A DNA stretch of 64,000 nt from NCBI GenBank assembly GCA_963795855.1, contig CAWCIZ010000002.1, positions 160,001 to 224,000 on the forward strand. The letters are read 5' to 3'. This document shows, in pieces, positions 25,668 through 64,000 of this stretch (position 1 is the first letter of the stretch; every line of letters begins with the position of its first letter). The notes beneath the pieces were generated by a model, which was not told the DNA's origin, searched no databases, and saw only the letters and a list, made by a program, of their open reading frames with translations. This DNA is from Vulcanimicrobiota bacterium. Lineage in GTDB: Bacteria; Vulcanimicrobiota; Vulcanimicrobiia; Vulcanimicrobiales; Vulcanimicrobiaceae. Made by a program: the position numbers and the translations under genes.

Positions 25668-28600
25668 TTACGGGCCTGACGGCGCTCCCGGCGCGTTCGG
25701 CGGTCTCCGGCGCGTCGGCATGAGCAAATACAGTCCGAGCGACGGCGAGTAATTGAGGCTCGGCGGAGCCGCGCCGTCCCAACCCAGTTTGGTCAAGTCG
25801 GTCTTCGCTGCGGCGGCTACGCGTCCGCAGTTGATAATCGCCGGAACCGCACCGATATCGGCGGCGTCGAGCGAATACCACGTGCCCGCCGTCGAGGCAT
25901 GCGGCGCAATCGTCCAGCCGGGCGCGGCTGCGCCGCGGGAGAAATGCGCTTGAAGCTGCGCGAGCATCTGCTGCGCCACGCCGTGCATGTCTGCGGTGCA
26001 GCTTTGCGACGCGCGCAGGGCAAACGGCGTCTTCGGCGCGGTGCTCGGAAGTTTGTAGACACGGAAACTTTCCGCACCGGCCTGCGGCGGACGGCGTACG
26101 AAGTACAACCCCACGGCCGGCATGTACGTCACGGTCGGTCTAAAGAACATTCCGCCCGTGCCCGGCTGCACGAAAAGATTGCGCTGCTGCGCCGTTTGCT
26201 CGTCGGTAACGTGGAATGTCGTGCAGCCGAACAGCGAACGCATTTGCGTCGCTTGCGTGACCACAATACTGAGCGCATACGTCGATTTCAAGCCGTGATA
26301 CGTTACGGCAACACCCGGAACGTTTGCCGGCTGCATCGTGTCGGGATAGCCCGCAGCGGTTTTTGCGGCCTCGATCTGCGCGGTGTAAGCCTTCAGTCCC
26401 GCAAGAACGGTTTGAGCGGTTTTTTGCGCGTCGGCCGTGCACATGGGCGTGAGGTTGAGGGCCAACGGATCCGCCGGCGGCATTTCCGGCAGCGGCGAAC
26501 CGAATTGACGGAAGCCGCCGCGGCCGCGTCCGGGTTCCCCCGGCTGTCCGCGGGTTGACGAGGACTGTGCGAGCTGTGCATTTTGCCCGAAGCGCGCCGT
26601 GTAGGTAAGTGAAATCTGACGCGGCGCGTTCGGCCGCGCGATCGTCGGGATCGTCAGTCCGTTCGCTGCCGAATAGGGAACCGCGTTTTCGGAACTCGCG
26701 AAGACGCCGCCGTACGCGTTGAAAATATTGCTTGCCGCGAACGTCAGCGTTCCGTGCTGCAGTTGGGTGCTCACGCCGGCATCCACCGTCGTATACGCCG
26801 GCAGGTTCTGCGCATTGTTCGAACCGGTATAACTCGCATCCGCAAGCCACTCCACCGCCGAATGCGGCGCCCGGTAGTCGAGCGTTATGCCGGCGCGATG
26901 CAGCGGCACGTTGGGAAGTTGGTTGCCGGAGATGGTAATCGCATACGGATTCGCGAACCGTGGATCCGCACTGATCGCTTTGGCGACCTGGACGTCGTAG
27001 TACGGCTCGAGCACGAGCGCGCCCAGCGTGAAGTACCCGTTCAGATGCGCGCCCTCGTATACGCGCCGCACGTTGCCGATCGGCGTCGAGAAATAAACGT
27101 TCTGCGCGCCGAATGCGGTCGAGGGCGGCACGCCGCACGTCGAGTCGAAATAGCTTTGCGCGGTGCCGAAATACGCAGGCGGGAAGATGCCCGTGGCCAG
27201 CAGCGCCGTTCCGTTGACTTGCACCGGCAGGACGACGTCGTTCTGAACTTGTCGATACAGCGAGCCGCTGATCAGTCCCCAGTTGCCGCGGTGCGTATAG
27301 CTCAGCCGGGCGGAGTTCGAGGAACTCGCGCCGGGTTCGTCGCCCGGAGCGTTTCCGTACGCAATGTCCCCGTTGCAATCGATGCGCAGCTCGCCCGGAT
27401 CGGTCAGAATGCCCGCGCGTCCGGCGTGCGGAGCGACGCCGCCGATATTATATGAGAACGCGTACGCGTCGCTGGTTGTCGGTTGCCAGTTCGCGCCGAC
27501 GCCGGCGAGCAACGACGAAGGCGCATTGCTCGCGCGGCTGATACCGATGGAGTCGTTCAGACGAAGTTTCGTGTTCGAGCGAATCGAGTCGTTCACCGAG
27601 ATCGCCGCGTAGCTCGCCGTCTGCCCCGGGAACGTGAACGGCTGCGCCTGGGCCACGAGCGGCGTGAAAGTGGACGTGCTGTTCGTGCCGTAAGCGCTGA
27701 CCGAGATCGTGTGGCGCTGCTGCGCGGGCAGCGTTGCGTCGATCGAAATTCCGTTCGTGCTCGTGGCGGTTTGCGTGCCGGTCGGCGCCGCTTCGCCGTC
27801 GATGTACCGGTCCAGCAAATCGCGCGTCGACTTCGAACGCGATCCGAAGACGGCCGCTTGCACCTGCGTATCGCCGATCAACGCATTGTCCGTGAGCGAA
27901 TACAGATCGAAGGCCGTGTCGTACGAGTTGTTCGGCCCGTACCCGCACGGGACGGCTCCCGTATCCTGCGTGCACACCAATTCGGCGCCGTTCACCGAGT
28001 GCATGTAGCTGCCGGTCAGCGTCTGTGACTGCGAGAGCTGGTAGCGCATTTTCACGAGGGAACCGATCTGCTGCCGGTCGCCCTCGTGCGTGTAATCCAA
28101 TCCGCTCGCATCGAGAAACTGCATGCCGTCGAGCAGGCTCGGGCTCATGCGATAGGTGTGCATGACGGCGAGACCGAGTTTACCGATCGATCCCGTTTCC
28201 GAAGCGGAGTAGTCGTTTTTGCCGTTGCTGCCGGCGGACAGGGAGAACGCGCTCTGCCAGCTGAGCGTCGGGTCGAGCGTGCGAAAATTCACCCCTCCCG
28301 CCAGTCCGCCGAGCGTTGGGCCTAAGGAGACGTTCGCTCCGCTGAACAGATCCGAGTTCATCATACGCAAATCGCCCGCCATGCCGGGCGCGTTGAGCGG
28401 AATGCCGTCGAGCGTCATCTGCGTCTGACTCGGATCCTGCCCTTCAAGCGAGACGGTCTGCGTCGCGTCGCTATCGGTGCTCGAGGTCGTGACGGTGACG
28501 CCCGAAAGTTTGCCGAGAGCGTCGGCAAGCGTGTCGGAAAGTTTGCGCTGCGCGCTGTCGTTCGAAATCGCACTGGTCGAAACGGTCGCGCTCGATTTCA

Positions 28601-28967
28601 CCACTTCCGACGCGATCGTCCGCAGTGGGCCGCCTTGCGACTGCGCAAGCTCCACGCTGACCGTTACCGCGCGTCCGTCGATGACTTCGAAGTTCTGCGA
28701 GGTGACGGGGCTGAAGCCGCGCGCAAAAATGCGCGCGCGATAGATGCCGCTCGGAACGTCGGTGAAACGTACTTTGCCGTTGTCGCCTGTAAATTCGCTT
28801 GCGATGACGGGGCCGTCGAGCATGACGCGCGCCAACACGACCGGAATTTTTTTCGAAGCATCCTGAACGACGATGTCGATCTCGCCGGTGTCGGATTGAG
28901 CGAACGCCGGTATGGCGCCGCCGAACAACGCAAGCGACAACAGCAGGCAGAACAAGCGACGGATCAT
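25668..28967 (-). CDS. TonB-dependent receptor-like outer-membrane protein with about 306-aa C-terminal extension
   Basis: GAGGA RBS, signal peptide, carboxypeptidase-regulatory-like N-domain, plug (DALGKLSGV, LDGIPLN, LAGGVNF), barrel end (LPAYTTVDAGV, ASNIFN, PRQISLTYTARF). Confidence 0.85.
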   Translation of the reverse strand: MIRRLFCLLLSLALFGGAIPAFAQSDTGEIDIVVQDASKKIPVVLARVMLDGPVIASEFTGDNGKVRFTDVPSGIYRARIFARGFSPVTSQNFEVIDGRAVTVSVELAQSQGGPLRTIASEVVKSSATVSTSAISNDSAQRKLSDTLADALGKLSGVTVTTSSTDSDATQTVSLEGQDPSQTQMTLDGIPLNAPGMAGDLRMMNSDLFSGANVSLGPTLGGLAGGVNFRTLDPTLSWQSAFSLSAGSNGKNDYSASETGSIGKLGLAVMHTYRMSPSLLDGMQFLDASGLDYTHEGDRQQIGSLVKMRYQLSQSQTLTGSYMHSVNGAELVCTQDTGAVPCGYGPNNSYDTAFDLYSLTDNALIGDTQVQAAVFGSRSKSTRDLLDRYIDGEAAPTGTQTATSTNGISIDATLPAQQRHTISVSAYGTNSTSTFTPLVAQAQPFTFPGQTASYAAISVNDSIRSNTKLRLNDSIGISRASNAPSSLLAGVGANWQPTTSDAYAFSYNIGGVAPHAGRAGILTDPGELRIDCNGDIAYGNAPGDEPGASSSNSARLSYTHRGNWGLISGSLYRQVQNDVVLPVQVNGTALLATGIFPPAYFGTAQSYFDSTCGVPPSTAFGAQNVYFSTPIGNVRRVYEGAHLNGYFTLGALVLEPYYDVQVAKAISADPRFANPYAITISGNQLPNVPLHRAGITLDYRAPHSAVEWLADASYTGSNNAQNLPAYTTVDAGVSTQLQHGTLTFAASNIFNAYGGVFASSENAVPYSAANGLTIPTIARPNAPRQISLTYTARFGQNAQLAQSSSTRGQPGEPGRGRGGFRQFGSPLPEMPPADPLALNLTPMCTADAQKTAQTVLAGLKAYTAQIEAAKTAAGYPDTMQPANVPGVAVTYHGLKSTYALSIVVTQATQMRSLFGCTTFHVTDEQTAQQRNLFVQPGTGGMFFRPTVTYMPAVGLYFVRRPPQAGAESFRVYKLPSTAPKTPFALRASQSCTADMHGVAQQMLAQLQAHFSRGAAAPGWTIAPHASTAGTWYSLDAADIGAVPAIINCGRVAAAAKTDLTKLGWDGAAPPSLNYSPSLGLYLLMPTRRRPPNAPGAPSGP

Positions 28968-28992
28968 CGTTCCTCTATGTAGCACGCACGGG

Positions 28993-31714: not shown

Positions 31715-32701
31715 TTAGGCGCTGGAAGCGCGGTGTTCCGCGGGCTGCTTCTGCTTGCGCGTCCCGCTGAAAAGGCTCAACATCGAATCCACCACGACCG
31801 GATCCCACTGGGTTCCGCGTCCGTCCCGAAGAATTTCCAGCGCGCGGCGGGGCGCGATTGCCTTGCGGTACGGACGGTCGCTGATCATTGCGTGGAACGC
31901 GTCGGCCACGGCGACGACTCGCGCTTCGAACGGAATGTTGTCACCCGCGAGCGCGTCGGGATAACCGGCGCCGTCCCAGCGCTCGTGATGCGCGCGAACG
32001 ACGACGGCGCAACGCGCCAGCGTGGGAATCTGGTCGAGAATCCGTTCGCCGGCCGCGCAATGTTCCCGCATGACGTCCCACTCCGCGGAACTCAGCGCGC
32101 CCGGTTTGAAGAGGATGCTGTCCGGCGTCGAGATTTTGCCGATGTCGTGCAGCAGCGCGCACTGCTCGATGAAATCCGTCAGTTCTTTCGAGAGGCCCAT
32201 CGCCGCGCAGAGCCGGCGCGCCCATTCACCGGTGGCCTTGGAGTGACAGCAAGTCTGCGAATCGCGCTCGCCGAGCATCGCGAGCAGTGCCTCCGTCGTT
32301 CCGGAGTGCGCCGACCGCGGTTCGCAGCCGTCACCCCCCAAGGCGGAGAGCGCCGATTGGATTTCGGCCTTCAGCACCTCCAGAAAGGCGAGAAGCCTGC
32401 CGTGATCGATCGGAAATCCGCTGACTTCGCTCGCGATGACGTGCGCGGCAGCGTTTGCCACTTCCATCGTGCGCGAAGCGCCGAGGCGGCGGCCTTCACG
32501 TACGGCCCACGTGGCCAGTCCGACCGGTTTGGAAAGCTGAATCGACAAGCAGAGCCTGTCGAGGATGAGTTCTATCGATGAATCAAGGGCGGGGTCCCCG
32601 AAAAGCGCCGGATCCTGAACGTGCTCGACGACCTGAGGGGTCAGAGCGCGAAGATTACCCGAGATCGCCGATGCCGCCGCCGGCAACGTATGCACGTCCA
32701 T
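31715..32701 (-). CDS. HD-GYP c-di-GMP phosphodiesterase with helical N-terminal domain
   Basis: LLHDIGKI, HHERWDGAGYP, ADAFHAMISDRPYR. Confidence 0.92.
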   Translation of the reverse strand: MDVHTLPAAASAISGNLRALTPQVVEHVQDPALFGDPALDSSIELILDRLCLSIQLSKPVGLATWAVREGRRLGASRTMEVANAAAHVIASEVSGFPIDHGRLLAFLEVLKAEIQSALSALGGDGCEPRSAHSGTTEALLAMLGERDSQTCCHSKATGEWARRLCAAMGLSKELTDFIEQCALLHDIGKISTPDSILFKPGALSSAEWDVMREHCAAGERILDQIPTLARCAVVVRAHHERWDGAGYPDALAGDNIPFEARVVAVADAFHAMISDRPYRKAIAPRRALEILRDGRGTQWDPVVVDSMLSLFSGTRKQKQPAEHRASSA

Positions 32702-32736
32702 GTTTTTTAGCAGCCAGTGCGGGAGAGAAGCGCGGC

Positions 32737-32814
32737 TTACTGAATCGGCGTCGGCGGCGAAACGCAGGCGACGATGACGGCGACGGAAGCGGCAACGACG
32801 AATGCAGTCAGCAT
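32737..32814 (-). CDS. Small hydrophobic peptide, 25 aa (MLTAFVVAASVAVIVACVSPPTPIQ); not in ORF track
   Basis: ATG...TAA ORF, GAGGA RBS 10 nt upstream, TACTTT -10 just above, signal-peptide-like core with lipobox-like IVAC. Confidence 0.6.
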   Translation of the reverse strand: MLTAFVVAASVAVIVACVSPPTPIQ

Positions 32815-32835
32815 GAAAAAAAGTTCCTCGTAGTA

Positions 32836-32900
32836 AAAGTACGGTGGTTACCACGAGCATAGGCCGAATGGGCCAGCCGGTCTCTACCCATCTTTAGTTA
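32836..32900 (-). promoter_or_regulatory. Putative promoter of peptide/HD-GYP unit with NarL/LuxR-type 7-2-7 site
   Basis: -10 TACTTT (32836-32841); palindrome GTGGT-T-ACCAC (32844-32854); TACCCAT-CT-TTAGTTA (32885-32900). Confidence 0.5.
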
Positions 32901-32918
32901 TGCCGTTTCGCTGGCTCG

Positions 32919-35546
32919 CTATCCCAGCAACCCCTGCTTACGCGCAAGGGTAAGCGCCTCATTGCGACCGCTGCACCCGAGCTTTCGGATGACGTTCTTG
33001 ATGTGCACCTGGACGGTGTAGACACTGCGTCCCGTCTCGAGCGCAATGTCCTTGGGGCCCCGTCCTTCCGCGAGGGCGCGCAGCACGGACAGCTCCGACT
33101 TGGTCAGCATCGTAGTGACGACTTCCTCGGCGACTACCCGCCGTTCAACGGCGCCGCCGAGCAGTTTGGCGATGCCGCCATATCCCATCGTCTGTACTAA
33201 TTGAAGCCGCTCGAACACTTCGTCGCGAAGCGCCGGGTTTTTCACCGCGCGCAGCAGCATTGTGACGGCTTCTCGCAATGCCTCGCACACCGGTGCCTCC
33301 CCCGTCACGCGCTGCAAAATGCGCGACGCATTGGTGACGCGTCCCGCCAGCGCCTCGGTGGCCGCGCACAGCAGCCGCGCCAGATCCATGTGACGGCGCG
33401 CGTGCAGGAACGTCGCCGATTCTTCGCACGTGAGGTCGAGCGCTTGCGCGATCAGCGCGAGGCCGCGTTCGCGTTGGCCGTCGACCACGAGCAGCAGTCC
33501 GCAAGCCGCCGACATATACGCCTGGTTCCAAGCGTAGACGATGCGATCGAGGACGCTGAACAGCATGCGGTGCGCGTCGTCGAAACGTCCGTCCCAGGCC
33601 GACATCAACGCGCGCGTGGGAATGACGAGCGCCATTCTCGTGACGTCGGACGTGGCCGTTTCCGCGAATTGACGTTCGAGCGCCAAGAGCCGTTCCGCGT
33701 TGCCGCGCGTCGACTCGACCGTGATCAGCTGCAAGACCGCGGTTTGCAGCGCGAGACGATCGCCCGCTTTGGTCGCGGCGGTCATCGCCTGCTGCGCGTA
33801 CCACGCCGATCGCGTCATGTCGTCTTCGTAAAAGAGCACCAAGTTCGCCAGTGCTCCATATGCGCGCGCCGCCGCACCGTACATCAGGCTGTCCGAAGCG
33901 AGCGTCACCGAACGCGTCAAATACTGCTGAGCGATCGCAGCCGGCATTCCGAGCTGCATCGCCGCTGCGCCGAGGCGGTGCCAAATCTTCACACGCTCGC
34001 CGACCTCGTCGGTTTCACCGGCGAACGCTTCCGCCTCTTCGATGGCGGACTTCGCCGCCGCCTCGCGATTGGCGTTCGCGTATGCGACCGCGAGCAGGCT
34101 GACGATGTCGGCGCGCAGATTTCCCGGCAACTCTTCGCCGAGCAGCGGTTCGAGCAGCGTGACGACGTCGCGGCCCAAATTGATCGAGATCAGCGCGAGC
34201 CGCACGGCCAGCGAGGCGCGCAACTCCGCGTCTTCGCAACGCGCGAGCGCTCTGTTGAGCAGCGATTCGGCGCGATCGTAGCGGCCGGCGTGCGCTTCGC
34301 CCAGGCCGCGCATGCCGAGCACGATCGGATGCGTCGCGCGCAAATCCTGCGGCAGCACGTCGAGCGCCGCATGCACCGCGTCCGCATGCCCCTGTTCCAT
34401 TAGCAGGAACCCCGACGTTTCCAAGATCCGCAGCACGTCGCGGCTTGAAGAGGCTTGCGCGTAGACGTTCAGCGCGTAGGCGAGCTGACCGGCCTTTTCC
34501 AGCGCCGCGCCGGCCGCCCGAGCCGTGCGTTCCGCCGCGAATTCACCCTCGAGTTCGACTTGGTGCTGCAGAAAGTCGCGGAACAAGTCGTGGCAGCGAT
34601 AAATGCCCGGGCGTTCGGGATAGATGAAGGCGACGCGATCGCGCAGCGCTTCGATCAGCGCCTTTGCTTTGGCGTAGCCGGCGACCCGCAGCACTTCCAC
34701 GTCGATCTCCGGCAAATAGCCGATGAAATGCAGCAGATCGCGCTCCTCGTCGTCGAGCGATTGATACACCTGCTCCGCCAGGTAGCGGTACACCATTTCG
34801 CGCGTGTTCGCGGCGATATTTCGCAGGTCGATCGATCGCGTCGAGGTTCGCAGCGCAAAGCTGAGCGCAGTCGGCCAGCCTTCCGTCATCGACAGAATTT
34901 CCGCGAGTTCGTCGTCGTGCACGCCGACGCGGGACGCCTTCGCGGCTTCGCGCGCTTCTTCTATCGTGAAACGCAGATCCTGTTCGTCGATGTTCAGGTC
35001 CATCTCGCCGTACGCCAGCCACGAGCCGACCGGCAGATCGAGCGACGAACGCGACGCGATGATCCAGTTGGACCGGCCTTTGGTGCGATCGATCAGCGAG
35101 ACGAGAAATTTGGAAATTTCCGGGTCGTTTTCGGCGATGTGCAGATCGTCGATCGCGATGACGCCCGTGAACGTTTTGATGTGCGCGTGCATCCACATCG
35201 CGAGATCCAAGCCCGGCGTTTTCGACGAGCGGCTCTTCTCGTATGCTCCGGACACAGTTTTGCGCGCCGCGGGCGCGATGTCGGTCACCGCTTCGGCAAA
35301 GCCGCGAACGAATCCGAGCAGCGTGCCGTTCTCGGCGCGCACGTCGTAGCGCGCGTGCGCCACGCCGCGCAGTGTCTCCAAATAATGACGCAGCGCGACC
35401 GATTTGCCGTAGCCGGCGGGAGCAACTATCAAAACAATCCGCTGCGTTGCAGCGGACGCGATGCGATCCACGATTCTCGGGCGCAGAACCGGAGTGAACG
35501 CTCCACCGGTCTCGATTCTGCCGTCCGCGGCTACCGGGCGGATCAT
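32919..35546 (-). CDS. MalT-like STAND ATPase / helical-repeat / LuxR-HTH transcriptional regulator
   Basis: APAGYGKS P-loop, IDDLH, TEGWP, YLAEQV, long Ala/Leu helical region, LTKSE..VL..LAEG...TV..HIKNV.RKLG. Confidence 0.9.
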   Translation of the reverse strand: MIRPVAADGRIETGGAFTPVLRPRIVDRIASAATQRIVLIVAPAGYGKSVALRHYLETLRGVAHARYDVRAENGTLLGFVRGFAEAVTDIAPAARKTVSGAYEKSRSSKTPGLDLAMWMHAHIKTFTGVIAIDDLHIAENDPEISKFLVSLIDRTKGRSNWIIASRSSLDLPVGSWLAYGEMDLNIDEQDLRFTIEEAREAAKASRVGVHDDELAEILSMTEGWPTALSFALRTSTRSIDLRNIAANTREMVYRYLAEQVYQSLDDEERDLLHFIGYLPEIDVEVLRVAGYAKAKALIEALRDRVAFIYPERPGIYRCHDLFRDFLQHQVELEGEFAAERTARAAGAALEKAGQLAYALNVYAQASSSRDVLRILETSGFLLMEQGHADAVHAALDVLPQDLRATHPIVLGMRGLGEAHAGRYDRAESLLNRALARCEDAELRASLAVRLALISINLGRDVVTLLEPLLGEELPGNLRADIVSLLAVAYANANREAAAKSAIEEAEAFAGETDEVGERVKIWHRLGAAAMQLGMPAAIAQQYLTRSVTLASDSLMYGAAARAYGALANLVLFYEDDMTRSAWYAQQAMTAATKAGDRLALQTAVLQLITVESTRGNAERLLALERQFAETATSDVTRMALVIPTRALMSAWDGRFDDAHRMLFSVLDRIVYAWNQAYMSAACGLLLVVDGQRERGLALIAQALDLTCEESATFLHARRHMDLARLLCAATEALAGRVTNASRILQRVTGEAPVCEALREAVTMLLRAVKNPALRDEVFERLQLVQTMGYGGIAKLLGGAVERRVVAEEVVTTMLTKSELSVLRALAEGRGPKDIALETGRSVYTVQVHIKNVIRKLGCSGRNEALTLARKQGLLG

Positions 35547-36008: not shown

Positions 36009-36317
36009 ATGACCATCGACGCCACTATCGCCAAAATGGAATCGATCTGCGACCGCTTCGAGTCCGCGCTCGCCGATCTCACGCAGCCGCGCGAGAAACG
36101 TCCCAACCCGTACGCCGCGCTCCGGGAACAGTATCCCAACGCGGGAAAACCGTGGCGCGCGCAAGACGACGAAGAGTTGCGCCGGCTCTTCGAAAGCGGC
36201 AATTCCACCGCGGATCTCGCGCTGACCTTTGCGCGCACGCCGAACGGCATTCGAGTGCGGCTCGAGCGGCTCGGCCTGATCGACGCTCAGCGATCGCCCG
36301 CCCCTCCCGCGTCGTAA
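36009..36317 (+). CDS. Small protein with C-terminal HTH/Myb-like motif
   Basis: AAAGG RBS; NAGKPW...DDEELRRLF..G.....LA..FART.NGIR.RL.RLGL. Confidence 0.75.
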   Translation: MTIDATIAKMESICDRFESALADLTQPREKRPNPYAALREQYPNAGKPWRAQDDEELRRLFESGNSTADLALTFARTPNGIRVRLERLGLIDAQRSPAPPAS

Positions 36318-36610
36318 TCCGAACGCTTCTGTGCAACGTCTTCTTTATCGAACACCGGCTGCCAAGTTTGCGCGCCGTCGATCGTTTTCCAGACGCCTCC
36401 GCCCGCCGCACCCGCGTAGTAGAGCGAGCTGTCGGCATCGGTACCGGTTACCGCGCCGACGCGACCACCCGACACCTGCGGTCCGATGTTACGAAAGCGA
36501 AGTTGGTCGAATACGCCCGGTGTGGGTGCCTCTTTTGCGGCATACGCGGCGGACGGTCCGCACGCGAGCAGAGCGACGATAGAAAAAGCGGCAAGCGACG
36601 CATGCCGCAT
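36287..36610 (-). pseudogene. 5' fragment of a secreted sortilin/BNR-repeat glycosyl hydrolase
   Basis: Signal peptide + LRFRNIGP..SGGRV.AV.G......YYAGAAGGGVWKT.DG..TW.PVFD, then ends after about 107 codons. Confidence 0.8.
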
Positions 36611-36614
36611 GGTT

Positions 36615-37202
36615 TTATGGCGCGCCGTCGCTCGCCTTTGCCGATTGCCGTATGAGCCGATCGACGAACTCTGCGATGAAATCGCCTTCCCACGCAAGGC
36701 GCGGCTGCAGCCACGCGCGCTGCGCGGGACAGGTGAGTTCACCCAGTTCGAGCACGAGGCCCGCGTCCTGCGTTTGCACCTGACGGAACCCGTAATAGTC
36801 GCTCAAATTGCGCGTGAAGTTGTCCGGTTTGAATTGAAACGGAAATACCGCGCCGTACATTTTGCGCCAGAGTTCGGCGCCCGCCTTCGATGAATCCACA
36901 TGATAGCCGATGGAAGCGCCGCTCGTGCACGGCTTGTCGATCCCGTCGAAATGGATGAAGATAGCGGTCTTCACCTCAAACTCCCCGTCAAAATCGGCCG
37001 GCTCGCGAGCGACGGAGTACCCCATCTCGCGCAGCTTGCGCGTTGCTTCATCTGCGACGATAGGCGTCCACGCGCGTTCGCCCTGTGCTCCCAAATTACA
37101 GTGGTGCTTCGGAAAGCGCGCGCAGCTTTCCGGACGTCCTTCGTGGCCGGCGGAAATGAGGACGTCGTAGTGAAGTACCGCGGCGAGGAGCACGTGCAGC
37201 AT
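36615..37202 (-). CDS. N-acetylmuramoyl-L-alanine amidase-like (Amidase_3) zinc hydrolase
   Basis: VLISAGH, GE, IFIHFD, LVLELG motif order. Confidence 0.75.
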   Translation of the reverse strand: MLHVLLAAVLHYDVLISAGHEGRPESCARFPKHHCNLGAQGERAWTPIVADEATRKLREMGYSVAREPADFDGEFEVKTAIFIHFDGIDKPCTSGASIGYHVDSSKAGAELWRKMYGAVFPFQFKPDNFTRNLSDYYGFRQVQTQDAGLVLELGELTCPAQRAWLQPRLAWEGDFIAEFVDRLIRQSAKASDGAP

Positions 37203-37212
37203 CGACGCTTAT

Positions 37213-40071
37213 CTACACGGCGCCGACGAGACGTTTGATAGCCTCGGAAGGCTCGCACTGCAGTTCGGCAAGCAGCGTATCGCGGTACTGGCGGTATTGA
37301 CGCATCGCGGCGGCGCGATCGCCGCCGGCCAAGTGCGCGGTAATTGCGATCTGCCGCGCCGCTTCATCGCACGGATCGTACCCGATCATCTCTTCGGCGA
37401 GTTCGAGCGCGCGCCGCGTATTGCCGTGGCTGAGCGCGTCGTTTGCGAGCCGGTGCGCGAGCTCGAGGCGCAGTTCGCTGATTCGGCGTTCCGTCGGCTC
37501 GAACCATTCCCACTGCGTCATGCGCTCCGGCCTGCGCGCGCGCAGTTTCGCGTACACCGTCTCGAGCAGCGTTCGCTCCGAATCCGCGAGCGCGGGGCGC
37601 GCGCGGAGGACGCCGACGAACCGATCGATCTCCCAGAGATCGACCCGAACGTCGTCGTGCAAAGCGTATCCGTCCTTGCCGCGCAGGATCGCTTGGTCGT
37701 TGCCCAGATGTTGGCGCAGCCGATGCAGGCACACCGAGAGCGCGTTACGCGCGGCGTATTCATCGAGTTCGGGCCACAGCAAGTCGGCCAGCCGCGCGCG
37801 CGGAACGGTTTCGCGGCGCAGCGAAAGCGCGACCAGCAGTGCGAGTTCCCGTTCGGAAAGCGAGATCGCGCGTCCGGCGCACCGCACGGTACCATCCGTG
37901 AGTCCAATCTCGAGCAGCGGCACGCGTTCGATGCGCTCGCGCTGCAACCGTCCCATGAACGCGTTGAGCATGCCGGAATGGGATTGCCGCGACGCGATCG
38001 CTTCGACCGCGTTCATAAACGCCGGCGTGCCGCACCGGTGCGCCGCATCGATCGCGCCGCGCATGTGTTCGTCGAAGTGCACGTCGTCAAACGTCGCCAG
38101 GGCGATCAGTGCTAGGGCCTCGATGAACGGCGCGCGATACTGCTGGGACGCCGTGACGGCGGCGCGCGCATGTTTGACGGCTTGTGCGGTCTGCGTCGCC
38201 GACGCCGCCGCCACGATCCGGCCGCACGCGACCCATTTCAGCAAATCGGCATCGGCGGGTTCCTCGGTGCGGCCGCGCGCAACCGCGGCAAAATATGCAA
38301 AACCGCGCACGCCGTTTCGCTGCACCACTTCGTCGAGCTCCGCACCGTAGCGAACGAACGCTACGTCATCGCCGGAAAGCCATGCGCCGAAGGCGCCTTC
38401 GGCAAGATCGAATGCGACGAAGTTGTACAGACCCGATCGCCGCGCGCTCTCCAGCGCGCGATCGATGAACTGCCGCGCGAGCGTGAATTCGCCGCGAATG
38501 CGCGAGACGTCCGCACCAAGCGCAAGCAGCGTTCCGGACGCCATGATGTCCATGCCGCCCACCAGCGGAAGCGCGATCGTGAGATCGCGTTCTGCGCGGT
38601 CCACGCGCCCGATGCGCGCGCGCATGATGCCGAGCAAGTAAAACAAATAACCTTCGAACGCGTTCTTCGGTTCGTCGCCCACGCCGTTCTCTGCCGCGAA
38701 CCGTTCGAGCATCTCCTCCGCTTCCTCGAGCAGCCCGATGTAACTCATAAAGAGCACGCGGAAAACCAGAATATAGTAGCGTTCGAGAAGCGTCACGTCG
38801 GGCGAAAGCGTGCGCCACAGCGACTCCGCTTCGTCGAGCAGTTCTTCCGTGTCGATGCAGAACATGCGCAGCAGTGCAGTCACCGCCCACAAGCGTGGAT
38901 AGCGCTGCACGAGCGTCCGATCGAGTGAAGCGAGGATGCGCGCGTATTGCATGGACGGCGCGTGATCGCGAATCACTTCGTGCTGGCCGAGCGCGTAAGC
39001 CGCGGAGCCTTGATCGCCGCGCGCCAAGTGCAGTTCCGCGGCGCGCTGGTAGCGCTTCTCACTTGCGTGCACTTCCGCCGCGCGCGTGAGCACCTCGCTG
39101 CGCCGGTCGTCGTGATGCTCGACGAGCAGCGATGCGAGCAGCGGATGCATCTGAAACGTGCCGTCTGATGCGCGCGAGACGAAGGGCGACTCCTTCGAAA
39201 AGTCGGCGAGCGCGCGAACCGCGGCATCGTCGGTCATGGCCGCCTGCAGATCTTCCACTTTGGCATTCGGGATGCAAGCGCACACGAAGAGCGCCTGAAC
39301 CAAGCTCGGATCGAGCGAGGCAAGGACCTGGTCGGCGAGATAATCGTGCAGTTCCTCGAACGCGATGTCGTCGAGCGACTCGAGCAGCGTTTCGATGCGG
39401 CCTTCCGTCGCGAATCTTTTTAAAAGGAAGACCGCAATAGGCCAGCCTTGAGACAGTTGCGTGATGCGTCCCAGCATCGCCGGGTCGTCGGCGTTCTCTT
39501 CGAAGAGCGCGGCGATTTCCGAGCGGTTGAACGCGAGATCTTCGGCGCGGAGCGTGAGAATCTCGTGCGGCGGCGCGAAGCGGGTCAAGTGAACGCGCAG
39601 GCTCTCGCGCGAGCAAATGACGATGACGCGGCTTTCCGGCCGCTGCGTCAGAAGGCGCGCAAAAAAATCGCGCGCAGACGGGTTGCGCGCGATGTGCTCG
39701 GCGTTTTCGAAGACGAATGTGGTGTCCGAGACGTCGCTCTTCCAGGCTTCCAGCGCCAGATTGACGCGCTCGGCAACGCTGGTGCCGCCGTCGCCCAGCA
39801 TCAGTTCCCGCTGGGTGAGGGTTTGGGTACGGGACGGGGTCTCGGCCGCGAGCGCGGGGATTAGGCGGCGGGCCAGGTCCAAATCGTCGAGCACCCCGGA
39901 GGCGTCGCAGATGGCCGACCCGGCACGCCCGGCGATGAGTTGGCGAGCCAGCGTCGACTTCCCGAAGCCGGCCGGAGCAATGAGCGCGAGGATCCGCGGC
40001 TGCACCCGGCCGAGCCGGTCGAGCAGCGAATCACGCCGGATCTCATGGAGTCCGCCGGTGACGATGGCCAT
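37213..40071 (-). CDS. MalT-like STAND regulator with C-terminal winged-helix + BTAD domain
   Basis: APAGFGKS, SQGWP, YLADQV; LADLLWPE...ARNALSVCLHRLRQ.LG; DPCDE...AMRQY..YR..L..EL..EPS. Confidence 0.9.
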   Translation of the reverse strand: MAIVTGGLHEIRRDSLLDRLGRVQPRILALIAPAGFGKSTLARQLIAGRAGSAICDASGVLDDLDLARRLIPALAAETPSRTQTLTQRELMLGDGGTSVAERVNLALEAWKSDVSDTTFVFENAEHIARNPSARDFFARLLTQRPESRVIVICSRESLRVHLTRFAPPHEILTLRAEDLAFNRSEIAALFEENADDPAMLGRITQLSQGWPIAVFLLKRFATEGRIETLLESLDDIAFEELHDYLADQVLASLDPSLVQALFVCACIPNAKVEDLQAAMTDDAAVRALADFSKESPFVSRASDGTFQMHPLLASLLVEHHDDRRSEVLTRAAEVHASEKRYQRAAELHLARGDQGSAAYALGQHEVIRDHAPSMQYARILASLDRTLVQRYPRLWAVTALLRMFCIDTEELLDEAESLWRTLSPDVTLLERYYILVFRVLFMSYIGLLEEAEEMLERFAAENGVGDEPKNAFEGYLFYLLGIMRARIGRVDRAERDLTIALPLVGGMDIMASGTLLALGADVSRIRGEFTLARQFIDRALESARRSGLYNFVAFDLAEGAFGAWLSGDDVAFVRYGAELDEVVQRNGVRGFAYFAAVARGRTEEPADADLLKWVACGRIVAAASATQTAQAVKHARAAVTASQQYRAPFIEALALIALATFDDVHFDEHMRGAIDAAHRCGTPAFMNAVEAIASRQSHSGMLNAFMGRLQRERIERVPLLEIGLTDGTVRCAGRAISLSERELALLVALSLRRETVPRARLADLLWPELDEYAARNALSVCLHRLRQHLGNDQAILRGKDGYALHDDVRVDLWEIDRFVGVLRARPALADSERTLLETVYAKLRARRPERMTQWEWFEPTERRISELRLELAHRLANDALSHGNTRRALELAEEMIGYDPCDEAARQIAITAHLAGGDRAAAMRQYRQYRDTLLAELQCEPSEAIKRLVGAV

Positions 40072-57807: not shown

Positions 57808-59348
57808 CCTAGCCCAATTCCAAGTGGCCGTGAGTAGCGGTAGACCGTTACCTACACGGCGGGAATAGTAAAAGATCCCCAGGACGTTCCAAGTAACAGA
57901 TCTTAGTGCACGTGTTTGCCACGAGGCACGATACGAAACGTACTCCGCTTCTTCCGTTATTTCGACAGGTCCACCGTCTGACACGTACGACAGTGAATGG
58001 GCCAGTTCCTAAAGAAGGGCTATATTGTAACGCCTGCCACGGAGACGCTACCAACTTTCCCTGCCCGGAGTAGCCTTCGACGGCGCCAGCGCTCGAAATC
58101 ACAATATGGCGCATCGTTCGGCCACGCCACGTTGTATTCTGCATGATCCACCAATAACCCAACAGGGCTGAATTACTTGTGCGGCCACGAGTGCTTGTAC
58201 CGCATCACTGCTGGCCGATGAAGGCTAGATTGCAATCTGTTGTTGATTGGCCCCACCCGAGGCGACTTGCGATGCTCTGGGCCCATAGAAGTTGGGCGTC
58301 CATCCTGAAAGAATTACGTTACCTGCGCTGCACGGGTTACCTGCTGGCGCCACTGATCCACGAACGCATTCGGAGCGTTGTATCCCGGTTCGTAGAGTGA
58401 AATCACGCTCGAACTCATGCAGCCGCTGCCGTCCGTAGTTACGGTTGCATCGTAGGGATCGGTGGCATTTGCGAGCGCGCGCGCGAACGTTGCGTCCGCG
58501 TAGGCGATCGCGGTGCCGCACCCTGCAGCGCGAGCTATGCCGCCGCCGAAAAGTGCGTTGACGCGTTCGGCAAGCGTTGGAACCGCACTACTCGACGCAA
58601 GCATCGTACCGGAAACCGGATAGCGTACTGCGGGCGGCCACACGGAAAGCGCGCCGGGCGTCGAGGACGGTGCGGGCGAAGGCGTATAATTCAGCACCAC
58701 GGTAAAGCCGCTCGGAGCGCTTCGCGTTGCCAACTCCAGATCGCGCTTGAGCGTCGGGCCTTCCACGTGAACGTACGTGATGTCGTTCCCGCCCGCGATC
58801 CACGGCATGCTGGGATAGAAATGGACGACGCCGCTCTGTAGTGCGGCTCCCGCGTAGAGCGAAGAGAAAATTGCGGCGGCTGGATCTTGCAACGCCGTGA
58901 TCGGATACGTGTGCGCGTAAAATTTCGTGATGTTCGCGTAGTCGACGTCGCTCGTCACGGCGCCCCCGGGCGCAGCGAAGCGATAGCGGTGCAGCGTGTG
59001 TGCGGTGGCGTCGTAAGAGTAAGCCCAAAAGTATGGCTGCTGCTTACCGTCACGCGTGAAGAAATCCACTTCATGACCGTCTGCGTTCGTTGCGCCGGTC
59101 ACGTCGTTCGGCGGCACGTAGATTGCCCACGCATCGTCTTCCTCGGACGTAAGACTGTCGGTCAATTGCGCCATAGTGCTCTGTTCGAAATCACGTTTCG
59201 CTTGAAAACGGCTTACGAGAAGCGTTTGGGATAGCGCATGAAGCATGAACCATCCGATCAGTACCGCAATGGCAACTGCAAGAACCGTCTCCAATAGCGA
59301 AAACCCACGCGAACATCGCCCCACGCCGCAGGTAGTGCCCGCTTGCAT
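57808..59348 (-). CDS. Large prepilin-type (type IV pilin-like) protein; Cys-containing 3' part frameshifted, end uncertain
   Basis: RG|FSLLETVLAVAIAVL class III signal; protein-like pieces continue past the 58314 stop. Confidence 0.7.
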
Positions 59349-59387
59349 GGGATTCTGAGACGCGCCGTGGGTATATTAGCAGACCCT

Positions 59388-59573
59388 ATGAATACCTCGA
59401 ATTGCAAGACGGAGGGGTGGGCGCCGATGCCGCTTGATCGCGTCGCGTTCAATCTTTGGAACGCAAGCGTTCGCGCGTCGGATATTTTGGTGTTGCGCAC
59501 CGTCGGCCGGGTAATCGAACTTCAACTGCGCGGCGGAAACGGCAATCTGCGCAGTCTCGTTCTGCAATTATAG
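59388..59573 (+). CDS. Small hypothetical protein, 61 aa
   Basis: TATATT upstream; ORF fills gap and ends at the MFS stop. Confidence 0.45.
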   Translation: MNTSNCKTEGWAPMPLDRVAFNLWNASVRASDILVLRTVGRVIELQLRGGNGNLRSLVLQL

Positions 59574-60911
59574 CGGCGCACGAATCGCGCGAACACCTGC
59601 TACCGACACCAGCACCGTCGCGAGCATAACGAGCACGAGCGCGAGTTCGTGCAACGAACCGTCCGCGGCACTGGCGCTGAAGGCAATCGCGATCAGACTC
59701 GACGCCAGCATCGCGCCGACGTAGCCGGCCGTTCGCAGCAAGCCCGACGCAACGCCGATATACGTTTCATGGGCGTGGATCGCAAGCGTCGCTTGTTCCG
59801 AAATCGGATTCATGCCGTTCGGGATTCCGAGCACTGCGCTCGCCGCCAGCACCGCAACTGCAGTCGAGTGCGCATGCAGTTGCAGCAGCAAGACCGTACC
59901 GGCGAGAGCACCGGCACACCCGTAAAACAGCGCAATCCTTGGACGCAGCCGCGCGCCGAATATGGCGCATGCGATAGCCACCAGAGAAGTCGGAAGCATC
60001 AGCAGGCCGGCCTGAGCCGGCGTCGCGCGGTGCGCTTGCTCGAGCCATTGGGGAAAGCCGTAGAATACCGAATAGAAAATCGTATAGATGGCGACATAGC
60101 GCGCGTAAACGGCGAGCAGTGGACGGTTGCGGGCGAGCATTCGCACGTCGATGAACGGCGCCGTGCTGCGCCGCTCGATGAAAAGCCACAGCGCAAAGCA
60201 CGCCACCATTGCACAAACCACGTACCATGATACGTTCCGCGGATGCAAAAGCGTGACGAGCAGGAGCGTCAGGCCGCCTGCAAACGTCACGATGCCGCCA
60301 AAATCCACGTCACGGATCGCTTGGCGCGCGTCGCGGCGCGGTGTCGTTCCGCGCGGCAGCCAAAACGCGCCGAGGAGTCCGGCACACAGCGCAACCGGAA
60401 CGACGACGAGCACGGTCGATCGCCACCCGGCAAACTGCACCAGAAGACCGCCGAGCGTCGGACCGACGACGATGCTGACCTGCCCCGCAATCGTAATCGC
60501 GCTGAGCGCGCTCGGACGAAGACGCCCGCGTTCGTCGGCGGCGAAACGGCGCAGCAGAATCATGGCTGCGGGATACGCAGCCGAGGTTCCGAAGCCCAGC
60601 ACGACGCGCCACGCTATGAGTACGCCGAGCGAAGGAGCTGCGGATCCGCCCACGCCGGCAAGCGTCGTGAGCACAAGTCCCGCGTAGAAGACGGGAATCG
60701 CGCCGTAGATGTCGGCAAGCCGGCCCATGAGCGGCTGGCCAACCGACGTTGCCAAGTACAAAGCAGCGATCAGCCACGCCGTTTGGGCGGCACTCGCATG
60801 AAACGCATCACCGATCGGCACGAGCGCCGTGGCAATGATCGAAGAATTGATCGGATTGAGCGTCAAGCCGAGCAGGAGCGGCGTGAGGTTCCGAGCACTC
60901 AGAGCCTGCAA
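59568..60911 (-). CDS. MFS transporter
   Basis: LNPINSSIIATAL, GRLADIYG, GPTLGG. Confidence 0.9.
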   Translation of the reverse strand: MQALSARNLTPLLLGLTLNPINSSIIATALVPIGDAFHASAAQTAWLIAALYLATSVGQPLMGRLADIYGAIPVFYAGLVLTTLAGVGGSAAPSLGVLIAWRVVLGFGTSAAYPAAMILLRRFAADERGRLRPSALSAITIAGQVSIVVGPTLGGLLVQFAGWRSTVLVVVPVALCAGLLGAFWLPRGTTPRRDARQAIRDVDFGGIVTFAGGLTLLLVTLLHPRNVSWYVVCAMVACFALWLFIERRSTAPFIDVRMLARNRPLLAVYARYVAIYTIFYSVFYGFPQWLEQAHRATPAQAGLLMLPTSLVAIACAIFGARLRPRIALFYGCAGALAGTVLLLQLHAHSTAVAVLAASAVLGIPNGMNPISEQATLAIHAHETYIGVASGLLRTAGYVGAMLASSLIAIAFSASAADGSLHELALVLVMLATVLVSVAGVRAIRAPL

Positions 60912-60915
60912 TTCC

Positions 60916-62747
60916 TTACGTCCGCGCCAAACGTTCGAGTTCTTCGAGCAGCCGCTCCCATTCAACGACGGCGCATGCGCTCGATTCCTCCAACCGGCGC
61001 GCTTCTTCTTGCAATGCCTTCACCCGCTCGCGATCGCCGTACGTGGTGGGGTCGGCGAAGAGTGACTCGATCTGGGCGCGACGCGCGTCGATGCGCGCGA
61101 TTTCACGTTCGATACGCGTAACATTCGTTTCGAGGTTCGAACGGTGCTTGAGCGGCGTGAGCTTCGAAGATTTCGCTTTCGGCTCGCGATCTTGCCGCTC
61201 GCGCTCGCGCGCGGGACGTTCGCGATCGCGCTGCGCTGTCTCATACGCTTCGTAGCCGCCGTCGAGCAGCCCCCAATCGCCGCGCTCGATCCAGAGCACG
61301 CGATCGCAGAGGCGGCCGAGCAAATAGCGGTCGTGCGAAACGACGACGATCGCGCCTTCATACTCGACGAGCACGCGATCTCGAGCGCTTCGCGGCTGTC
61401 GATGTCCAAATCGTTCGTCGGCTCGTCAAGCAGCAGCACGTCGGCGCTGCGCGCCATCAAGCGCTGCGAGCATGATGCGCCGGCGTTCGCCGCCTGAAAA
61501 TGCGGCGACCGGTTTGTCCGCCGCATCGCCGCTGATGCGCATGCGCCCGAGCAGCGCGCGCGCATCCTTCGGGCGTTATCGGCGCGGTGTCGATCACGGC
61601 ATCGACGGCGCTTCGCGTAACATCCAGTTGATCGTGCGTATTCTGTGCGAAGTAGGCGGCGCGCGATGCGGGATTGTAGCGACCGATGCCGCGCTCGGGA
61701 GCGAGCTCCTCGGCCAAAATGCGCAGCAGCGTCGACTTGCCCGCGCCGTTCGGACCGACGATGCCGAGCCGCTCGCCTTGCTGCACGTCGACGCTCAAGA
61801 CCGGTAAACAGCGGCGGTGCATACGATTTTGACAAACCCTTTGCTTCGAATGCGAACGCGCGGCTGCCGCGGCGCGCAGAATCCAGGCGCACGGCGATCG
61901 GTGCCGGGGCGCGCGGCAGCGGCTCCGGCGGCGCTTTGCTCTTCGACGCGCGAGCTGCTTCTCGCGGCTGCGCACTTGGCTGTAGTCCGACGATGTGTGC
62001 GTTGCGCGTAGACCGGCGATACTCGCGCGGCGTTTGTCGCGCTCGTCGATGTACTGTTCGTACGCGCGGCGCTCCGCTTCCAGACGCGCTTCCCTTTGCC
62101 CCACGTAGGCGCTATATGCGCGGCGTCGCCGGCGCATATATGTGGAAGCGCTCGCGATCGAACTCCCAAATCTGCGTTGCAACGCGATCGAGAAAATAGC
62201 GATCGTGAGAAACGATGATATACGCGCGCTTGTCGGAGGCGATGAACTCCTCGAGCCACCGCACCGTTCGATGTCGAGATGGTTCGTCGGCTCGTCGAGG
62301 ATCAGATAATCGGGGTCGTCAATCAGCAGATGCGCGAGCGCCGCTTTCGCACGCTGTCCGCCGGAGAACTCGCGCAGCGGACGCTCGAAGTTTTCCGGCT
62401 CGAAGCCGAATTCCGCGAGCATGGCGCGCAGCATGCTGCTGCGCAATCCGTACGCTTCGTGATCTGCACGCGCGAGCGCGGCATCCATCAGTTGCTGCCA
62501 GCGTCGCGTGCGTTTCGTCGGCCGCGCTTTGCGCGAGGTAGCCGAGTTTCGCATTGCGCGCGCGAAAGATCTCGCCGCCCTGCGGTGTATCCGCGCCCGC
62601 CAGCAGACGCAGCAGCGTCGACTTGCCTGCTCCGTTCGCGCCGACCAAGCCGACGCGCTGCCGCTCAGCGAGTATGCCGCTTACCTCGCTGAAGATTCGG
62701 CGAGCGCCATAGTGACATTCCAGGCCGGTGAAGCGGAGCAGTTCCAA
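60916..62747 (-). CDS. ABC-F family ATPase (Uup-like; several frameshifts)
   Basis: Two Walker A (GANGAGKS, GPNGAGKS), FSGGQ, LDEPTN twice, SHDRY, C-terminal coiled coil. Confidence 0.9.
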
Positions 62748-62821
62748 GGCGCCTTCCCATACCGGGCGAAACGGTAGTGTTCCTGGCGGAACTTGCGGCG
62801 CGGCAGGCAAACGTTCACGCG

Positions 62822-63283
62822 ATGGTCATTCGCGCGGCGCGACCCGATGAGGCGGCGGCGCTCACCGCTTTGGCAATGCGCTCGAAGCGCTCGTGGGGAT
62901 ACGACGAAGCATTCATGCAGCGTGCCCTGCCGGATATGATCGTGACGCCCGAAGACATCGCTCGCTCGTACTGCCGCATCGCGGAGTTGGATAGCAAGGT
63001 CTGCGGATACGTGCTATCGCTCTCGCTCGACGCGGAGTCGGTGCTGCTGCGCGATTTGTTCGTCGAACCCGAGTACTTCGGCCGCGGTATCGGAACGGCA
63101 CTCTTTCATCGAGCACTGCGGCACGCCCAGGCGCGCGGCGCGCAACGGCTGACATTGGAAGCCGATCCCAACTCCCAGGCGTTTTACGAACGCTTCGGGA
63201 TGCGCTGCGTGGGAAGAGCCGCTTCCATCGCCGGCAACGGGAGAACGCTGCCCATATTGGAAGTTTCGTTGGAACGGTCTTAG
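62822..63283 (+). CDS. GNAT N-acetyltransferase
   Basis: SKRSWGY, LFVEP...GRGIG..L, ADPN...FYE.FG. Confidence 0.92.
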   Translation: MVIRAARPDEAAALTALAMRSKRSWGYDEAFMQRALPDMIVTPEDIARSYCRIAELDSKVCGYVLSLSLDAESVLLRDLFVEPEYFGRGIGTALFHRALRHAQARGAQRLTLEADPNSQAFYERFGMRCVGRAASIAGNGRTLPILEVSLERS

Positions 63284-63390
63284 AAAGCGCCATACGTATG
63301 GCACGACGTCGGCGTACCCTCGGGCTATGAAGCGCTCCGCCCGTCCTCCACAAGGCCCGCCGCACGCATCTCCGAAACAGAGCGTAAGTC

Positions 63391-64000
63391 ATGCAGCGGA
63401 TTGAAGGCGGGTTGATTTTTGCTGCCTCGGATTTGAACAATTTCCTCGAGTGCGCGCATCTCACCGAACTCGACCGCAGCGTCGCGCTCGGGGAGCGATT
63501 GGCGCCCGAGCGGGACGATCCGCAGGTTGATCTCATCGCGAGAAAGGGTGACGAACACGAGCGCCGCTATTTGGGACGGCTGCGCGATTTATACGACGGG
63601 AGCCTAACGGAATTCGCGCGCCCGGACCGCAGCGCCACCGGCTTTGAAGCCGGCGAAGCGGCGACGATTGCCGCTATGGAGCGCGGCGAGCGTATCATTT
63701 ACCAAGCGACCTTTTTCGACGGGCGTTTTCTCGGGCATCCCGATTTTCTGCGCCGCATCGACGTCGCGTGCGAACGTTGGCCTTGGAGATACGAGGTCAT
63801 CGACACCAAGCTCGCGCTGAGCGGCAAACCGTATTTTGTCATTCAACTCTGCAATTACAGCGAGCACTTGGCGCGCATTCAAGGGGCGGAGCCGCAGTAT
63901 GCGTACGTCGTGCTGGGCAACGGCGACGAGCACCGCTACCGGCTGAACGATTACTTCGCATATTACCGGCACTTGAAGCAGCGCTTTTTAGCATATCTCG
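63391..64000 (+). CDS. TM0106-family RecB-like nuclease, 5' part, runs off window; not in ORF track
   Basis: MQRIEGGLIFAASDLNNFLECAH...KGDEHE...IYQATF...GHPDFL...YEVIDTKL...QLCNY. Confidence 0.88.
   Translation, partial: MQRIEGGLIFAASDLNNFLECAHLTELDRSVALGERLAPERDDPQVDLIARKGDEHERRYLGRLRDLYDGSLTEFARPDRSATGFEAGEAATIAAMERGERIIYQATFFDGRFLGHPDFLRRIDVACERWPWRYEVIDTKLALSGKPYFVIQLCNYSEHLARIQGAEPQYAYVVLGNGDEHRYRLNDYFAYYRHLKQRFLAYL

Follow-up and report, generated by a model that had tools for sequence, protein, structure and literature searches.

A cassette of three genes in a 64,000-nucleotide stretch of a Vulcanimicrobiota bacterium genome (GenBank assembly GCA_963795855.1, contig CAWCIZ010000002.1, positions 160,001 to 224,000; hereafter the window) was found to be real, conserved and so far undescribed. 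It consists of a MalT-like regulator of the STAND ATPase type with a LuxR-type helix-turn-helix (HTH), a gene for a peptide of 25 amino acids (aa) and a gene for a predicted HD-GYP phosphodiesterase. The small gene in the middle is real and conserved and, as judged from its sequence and those of its homologues, probably encodes a short exported peptide that is sensed by the neighbouring regulator. The genome belongs with Candidatus (Ca.) Baltobacteraceae in the Eremiobacterota, a mostly uncultured soil phylum. The elements of the locus are the following (NOD, nucleotide-binding oligomerization domain; window coordinates).

32919..35546, minus strand: MalT-like STAND-LuxR regulator, 875 aa (Pfam, MalT alignment, AlphaFold2 model, NOD motifs)
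32885..32900, minus strand: 7-2-7 palindrome, putative LuxR HTH site, imperfect here (consensus TA[GC]TTAA-nn-TT[AG]A[GC]TA), directly 5' of the -35
32879..32884, minus strand: weak -35, GAGACC (consensus of peptide loci)
32856..32861, minus strand: conserved -10, TATGCT (consensus of peptide loci), with a spurious ATG at 32860 inside it
32825..32829, minus strand: GAGGA ribosome-binding site of the peptide gene, 10 nucleotides (nt) 5' of the peptide ATG
32737..32814, minus strand: 25-aa peptide precursor gene, MLTAFVVAASVAVIVACVSPPTPIQ, with a hydrophobic segment at residues 2-17 ending in a lipobox-like IVAC, then the tail
32740..32763, minus strand: presumed active core VSPPTPIQ, ends approximate (from the 7-9-residue repeat units of homologous precursors)
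31715..32701, minus strand: predicted 328-aa HD-GYP phosphodiesterase with an N-terminal non-haem globin-fold domain at about 5-123 (HD_5, motifs, fold comparison)

Conservation of the peptide gene

An earlier note on this DNA had proposed an open reading frame (ORF) at 32814-32737 with a GAGGA site, a hydrophobic core and the HD-GYP ATG 35 nt further on, and all of these are present in the sequence. The regulator stop is followed after 104 nt by the start of the ORF, and a weak ribosome-binding site precedes the HD-GYP ATG at 32701. The comparison covered 141 regulator loci, the best-scoring of 257 matches, with six duplicates and one locus of an unpublished genome removed. Small ORFs were called by a rule (17-50 aa, hydrophobic, no Lys or Arg after residue 3, a Pro/Gly tail and a start 20-160 nt after the regulator stop) that was fixed but had been drawn up after the first peptides were known. 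As the earlier note had expected, the small ORF is kept beside homologous regulators: it was called in 62 of the 71 loci that bear HD-GYP, window included, against 9 of 3550 shuffles and 2 of 658 ends of long ORFs in the window's own genome, one of these two being the peptide itself. It was also called in 25 of the 70 loci without HD-GYP in the fetched DNA, and the peptides of the 87 called homologues were 19-45 aa long. Among the nine HD-GYP loci missed by the rule, seven had a variant recognisable by eye (one of them frameshifted) and two, L075 and L135, had none that could be found in this way. More distant MalT-like loci from metagenomes had the peptide in 0 of the 39 that could be evaluated, the other 29 of L205-L272 being truncated.

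The 17 equal-length peptides of genus g30 differ far more at synonymous sites (pS 0.69) than at nonsynonymous sites (pN 0.22, falling to 0.12 in the last 7 codons), and their identity at the three codon positions (0.69/0.89/0.37) indicates coding-type selection. This selection on the peptide codons gives indirect support for translation. In two genomes (G135, locus L191, and G189, locus L301) the peptide gene has moved off its regulator into the same other neighbourhood.

The regulator

STAND ATPases are the family of Apaf-1 and the NLRs. In Pfam searches the regulator matched AAA_22 at 34-153 and the GerE HTH at 813-868, with weak tetratricopeptide repeat (TPR) matches below the cut-off. We divide it, by our own reading of the structural model and the MalT alignment, into NOD (about 15-332), arm (about 333-404), helical-repeat sensor (about 405-805) and LuxR HTH (812-872). 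The nearest solved relative by sequence is E. coli MalT (8bob, E 6e-11). The AlphaFold2 model has a mean confidence (pLDDT) of 93 with the helical-repeat sensor visible, its best Foldseek matches are PH0952 and MalT, and the sensor has TPR_MalT look-alikes at 0.92. Across 114 regulators the NOD motifs are retained: Walker A in all 114, Walker B in 110, GxP in 113, the winged-helix His in 107 and, by a loose two-residue pattern, the sensor-1 Arg in 114, with R166 near-invariant. By layout and NOD motifs the regulator is classed, on sequence, as a MalT-like STAND activator; with 148 bits against a cut-off of 537 for the NCBIfam equivalog PRK04841 it fails as MalT proper. At E 1e-30 matches were present in 145 of 160 Ca. 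Baltobacteraceae genomes (a tally that takes in a few genomes not yet published, which are used for no other claim), in 3 of 3 genomes of the sister family and in none of the other families sampled. Loci L099 and L101 are 3% apart in the NOD, 39% in the sensor and 34% in the HTH, an apparent swap of the regulator 3' half together with promoter and peptide.

Promoter and translation starts

An arrangement of palindrome, weak -35 and TAnnnT -10 with nearly constant spacing is repeated among the peptide loci. A strict filter was passed by 42 of the 87; among those failing it, more have the promoter with the -10 displaced by 1 nt, and the box is missing from several g30 loci. In the window TATGCT lies 23 nt behind the palindrome at 32900-32885. 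The position of the -10 is fixed by L171, L173 and L178, since their peptide ATG stands 6 nt behind it and leaves no leader. In L171, L172, L173, L178, L033 and L133 the palindrome reaches into the final codons of the regulator gene, and in the first four of these the peptide mRNA looks leaderless.

Two points of the earlier note were decided by this layout. The TACTTT at 32841-32836 which it had named as the -10 is to be discarded, as this is not the conserved hexamer and sits in the leader; the conserved -10 is the TATGCT at 32861-32856. A start of the HD-GYP gene at 32860, which the note had held against its own proposal, was likewise rejected: that ATG is part of the -10 hexamer, and in 41 of 62 loci the HD-GYP reading frame is not open all the way from the peptide start to the HD domain; in 19 of these 41 the peptide itself interrupts it, being in that frame and ending in a stop.

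The layout is what we take to be a class II activator site for an HTH of the GerE/NarL type, and because a palindrome of this type stands at the promoter the regulator most likely drives the peptide and phosphodiesterase unit. The activation that the earlier note had proposed thus keeps its footing in a palindrome that abuts the promoter, with the HD-GYP gene as an optional output. A plain sigma-70 consensus scan found no promoter at this site, as is expected where a promoter depends on an activator. In a scan of the own genome for a wider regulon with a position weight matrix, only the window site stood out (34.4, in the training set; next 12.7).

The tail of the precursor

The tail was claimed by the earlier note to be the functional unit, and repeats within precursors together with 8-mers common to peptide and protease support this. 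In L169, an orthologue (60% identical), one precursor holds three copies of SVVPVGGA, each coded differently; the L136 precursor has five PFPVSI-like units and that of L022 three copies of DAPSPGF behind a signal sequence. The core is about 8 residues long, and some precursors hold 3-5 synonymously diverged copies of it. Eighteen regulators of a paralogous clade, selected by eye, have behind them a lipoprotein protease whose tether carries 1-6 xxxxx[LM]P[GA] units; about 10 further loci in this more distant set are without a neighbouring protease gene of this type. The protease is tentatively placed as S8/S53-like by sequence: its match to Peptidase_S8 was weak (E 5e-4, below the cut-off), and a sequence search of solved structures gave no match. 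In genus g44 the precursors have two cores each, and in three of six genomes an unlinked protease, which sits behind a sensor gene and a globin-HD-GYP gene, contains an identical copy of the first core, encoded with 5-6 silent differences. The shared 8-mer is specific to each genome (NGAMAMPG in G187, EGAMALPG in G197, GGVAALPG in G171).

In the sister family all three best loci have the box, a lipoprotein precursor of 49-51 aa with a C-terminal core, and HD-GYP, and one of them has an OppA-like gene just upstream. Because these precursors have that form, the 25-mer of the window appears to be a shortened form of a lipoprotein precursor.

The window's own genome contains four STAND paralogues, each with a candidate precursor nearby and with clear repeats in two. 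Three are additional to the regulator described above. On contig C3 (618740-614900 and 614601-614509, both minus strand) a STAND-LuxR paralogue, frameshifted in the assembly, stands before a protease lipoprotein with three copies of NTPEALPG; a second protease lipoprotein, with QSSAALPG, comes after it behind its own 7-2-7 box. On contig C1 (351.3-354.6 kb, plus strand, and 354.6-354.9 kb, minus strand) a STAND protein without HTH overlaps a globin-type HD-GYP gene, and a convergent signal-peptide gene carries five copies of DSVSAVPK. Also on C1, at 58883-63563 on the plus strand, a frameshifted HTH-less STAND is followed by HD-GYP and by a protease lipoprotein with a single candidate core in its tether. 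The genome further has 26 matches to family-5 (OppA-like) solute-binding proteins, some of them split genes, a large set for 3 Mb, as well as M50 proteases.

Probable partner of the peptide

Loci without HD-GYP can still have the peptide beside the regulator, as the 25 loci above indicate. By gene content the peptide travels with the regulator and not with HD-GYP, which is an optional output outside the core of the cassette. Peptide tails follow the regulator clades in a tree built from the NOD only. Over 49 non-overlapping sister pairs, sensor and core divergence at given NOD divergence were correlated (rho 0.59, p 8e-6; HTH 0.15), and over 38 stand-alone pairs the sensor-core rho was 0.53 after controlling for NOD, HTH and the hydrophobic part of the peptide. 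Of the 45 regulator columns with the strongest class dependence, 42 fall in the arm or the sensor. A complex prediction of the L169 arm and sensor with its own 35-aa three-repeat precursor scored 0.01, with no control complexes, and counts neither way.

The downstream protein has Pfam HD_5 at residues 142-303. Its motifs are intact in 52-59 of 60 homologues (HD[IV]GK 54, HHE[RW] 58, GxGYP 59). It resembles PmGH (4mcw; E 4e-32, Z 23), the cGAMP-specific V-cGAP3 scores as well, and its substrate would most likely be cyclic di-GMP (c-di-GMP). The N-terminal domain is modelled as a non-haem globin fold like those of pXO2-61 (Z 12.4, root-mean-square deviation 3.4 over 122 residues) and of the RsbR N-domain (Z 11.6, 2.9 over 117), values that are middling for a helical domain; an atlas search with it gave only leads below 0.8. 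That it could serve as a docking site for the STAND partner in the HTH-less paralogues is speculation.

Proposed mechanism and alternatives

Our preferred reading, held with somewhat better than even confidence, is an autoinduced peptide pheromone that is sensed by the STAND arm and sensor and switches on the globin-HD-GYP phosphodiesterase. Precursor gene, promoter, selection, repeats, shared cores, an intact STAND-LuxR and an intact-looking HD-GYP are present in the sequences; every step of binding, transport and activity is one that we infer from them. The precursor would insert into the membrane by its hydrophobic segment, and its last 7-9 residues would be cut off outside the cell. The core would re-enter through oligopeptide ABC transporters and bind the arm and sensor, opening the NOD, by analogy with MalT, for ADP/ATP exchange and oligomerisation. 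The HTH would then bind the palindrome and activate the box promoter, more peptide would be made in a positive feedback, and with the HD-GYP enzyme made too a cyclic dinucleotide, most likely c-di-GMP, would fall as the signal accumulates.

A number of observations weigh against this reading. Coding selection on the ORF, to which the earlier note had looked, is clear in g30 and weak in the window's own genus, where 8 peptides gave pS 0.53 and pN 0.38. Sec export is not assured for the short form, as Lys or Arg is found among the first five residues in 1 of the 87 short peptides, a strict lipobox in 7 and Cys in 33. Eleven loci have lost promoter and peptide with the regulator intact, and in 2 of 7 searched genomes of such loci the peptide gene is located elsewhere; the peptide-less loci may hold orphan receptors or be the sign of another input to the regulator. 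A second copy of the 8-mer was looked for without success in the other three of the six g44 genomes. When lineage was entered as a fixed effect (44 pairs, 7 lineages), the correlation of sensor and core fell to 0.21 (permutation p 0.10), and to 0.09 with the HTH also controlled, and the HTH-core correlation rose to 0.41 (p 0.002). Because the correlation falls under this control, the sensor-core signal is mostly between lineages and may come from linkage or rate differences, and we take the test as suggestive only. The co-variation of tail and sensor that the earlier note had predicted is seen across the 49 pairs and is not significant within lineages. The HD-GYP globin domain was also correlated with the core (rho 0.39-0.53 over 26 pairs, without lineage control).

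If the peptide bound the regulator and was never exported, it would act as a feedback modulator in the membrane or in the cytoplasm, and might inhibit the STAND protein by tethering it to the membrane. MalT itself is held inactive by MalK, MalY and Aes. A charged n-region is missing from 86 of the 87 short peptides, L169 and L164 lack a long hydrophobic segment, and regulators persist without a peptide, all of which would suit such a modulator. We still regard it as unlikely, for related cores stand behind true lipoprotein signals and in exported-protease tethers, where they would face outward, and tandem copies suit the release of free peptide better than a 1:1 tether.

The exported core might instead be freed by the cell's own export and protease machinery and inform that cell about the state of its envelope, secretion or proteolysis, as self-monitoring and not as a census. 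The cores within protease tethers and the box before the second protease gene in the own genome speak for this, as does the g30 core, which is near-invariant across species. In the window's genus and in two other genera, closely related species have different cores, as private signals would be, and we give self-monitoring roughly one chance in eight or so.

It is improbable that the peptide acts on the globin domain of HD-GYP while the regulator answers another ligand. Co-transcription and the globin-core correlation after controls (rho 0.39, p 0.046) fit this, but the 25 loci with peptide have no HD-GYP in the fetched downstream DNA and where cores are carried by proteases, the regulators in front of them have no HD-GYP. 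A leader peptide acting in cis, with prolines that stall the ribosome to control HD-GYP translation, is very improbable: 63 of the 87 peptides have PP among their nine C-terminal residues and the ribosome-binding site before the window's HD-GYP is weak, yet the downstream gene and its frame vary (19/16/27 over the three frames), some tails have no PP, cores are met again within long exported proteins and the gene survives relocation.

The pheromone reading can be extended, with slightly less than even confidence, to a multi-channel peptide language in Baltobacteraceae that is read by STAND ATPases, a convergent counterpart of RRNPP with a self-made pheromone read by an NLR-type switch. Each genome would have several receptor-peptide pairs, some receptors would activate transcription and HTH-less ones would act directly on a coupled globin-HD-GYP enzyme, two-core precursors would link channels, and precursors would span 20-aa minigenes to lipoproteins and self-releasing protease tethers.

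Comparison with known systems

The RRNPP(A) systems of Bacillota include PlcR-PapR, NprR-NprX, Rap-Phr, Rgg-SHP and AimR-AimP. The cassette shares with them a small precursor gene beside a cytoplasmic helical-repeat receptor, a hydrophobic leader with a short core, duplicated and species-specific cores, and effector and non-DNA-binding variants. PMC10075063 defines them by a propeptide of 10-100 aa, an adjacent gene, a Sec- or SHP-like leader and a receptor of 250-500 aa that lacks an NTPase core and binds the mature peptide by TPR repeats, and PMC11343458 describes intragenic duplication of cores in RRNPP precursors. Propeptide size (25 aa here, 19-45 aa in homologues) and adjacency to the receptor gene agree with this definition. 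In contrast, the receptor here has 875 aa, belongs to the STAND ATPases and ends in a LuxR HTH, and because of this length and its NTPase core, outside the 250-500 aa range, the cassette is not an RRNPP member. It also differs in phylum (Eremiobacterota), in precursors that include lipoproteins and protease tethers, and in its output, an HD-GYP enzyme.

With MalT and related large LuxR-type (LAL) regulators the receptor shares the NOD-arm-sensor-LuxR HTH layout, intact NOD motifs and the match to 8bob (E 6e-11). The inducer of MalT is maltotriose, whereas a self-encoded peptide is proposed here; MalT boxes are direct repeats, whereas the site here is a 7-2-7 palindrome, and the distant MalT-like loci were without the peptide (0/39). 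Binding of the ligand by arm and sensor and the opening of the NOD are described for MalT in PMC4381067, and the part of PMC9765709 seen makes no mention of MalT. The HD-GYP protein shares the HD, HHExxDGxGYP and RxYR motifs with PmGH (4mcw), PA4781 and V-cGAP3, and differs from them in its N-terminal non-haem globin-fold domain and, by its sequence context, in being the likely output of a peptide-STAND promoter.

No description of a peptide-STAND cassette was found in the literature searched; subscription journals and supplements outside this scope could hold candidate lists. If binding is confirmed, the cassette would add a new class of receptor to a kind of signalling that is already known. 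So far, cytoplasmic peptide quorum sensing has been mainly Gram-positive (Bacillota), with RRNPP receptors. Detection tools exclude receptors of more than 500 aa, going by PMC10075063, so this class would be missed. If the pheromone reading is true, the many orphan MalT-like STAND regulators would gain a ligand that is defined and cheap, and STAND activation could be studied at the bench on numerous cognate and non-cognate pairs provided by nature. Social signalling and the control of cyclic dinucleotides would also become approachable for the first time in a soil phylum most of which is uncultured.

Neighbouring genes

A second MalT-like STAND protein is encoded 1.7 kb upstream (window 37213-40071, minus strand), with Trans_reg_C and BTAD, which are AfsR/SARP-like parts in reversed order. 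A TonB-dependent receptor-like protein of 1105 aa (25668-28985, minus strand) has an extra C-terminal region of about 300 aa and, from its sequence, could be an uptake route. A short signal-peptide ORF at 36287-36646 (minus strand), without an NCBIfam hit, resembles the cut-off start of a BNR/VPS10-type protein.

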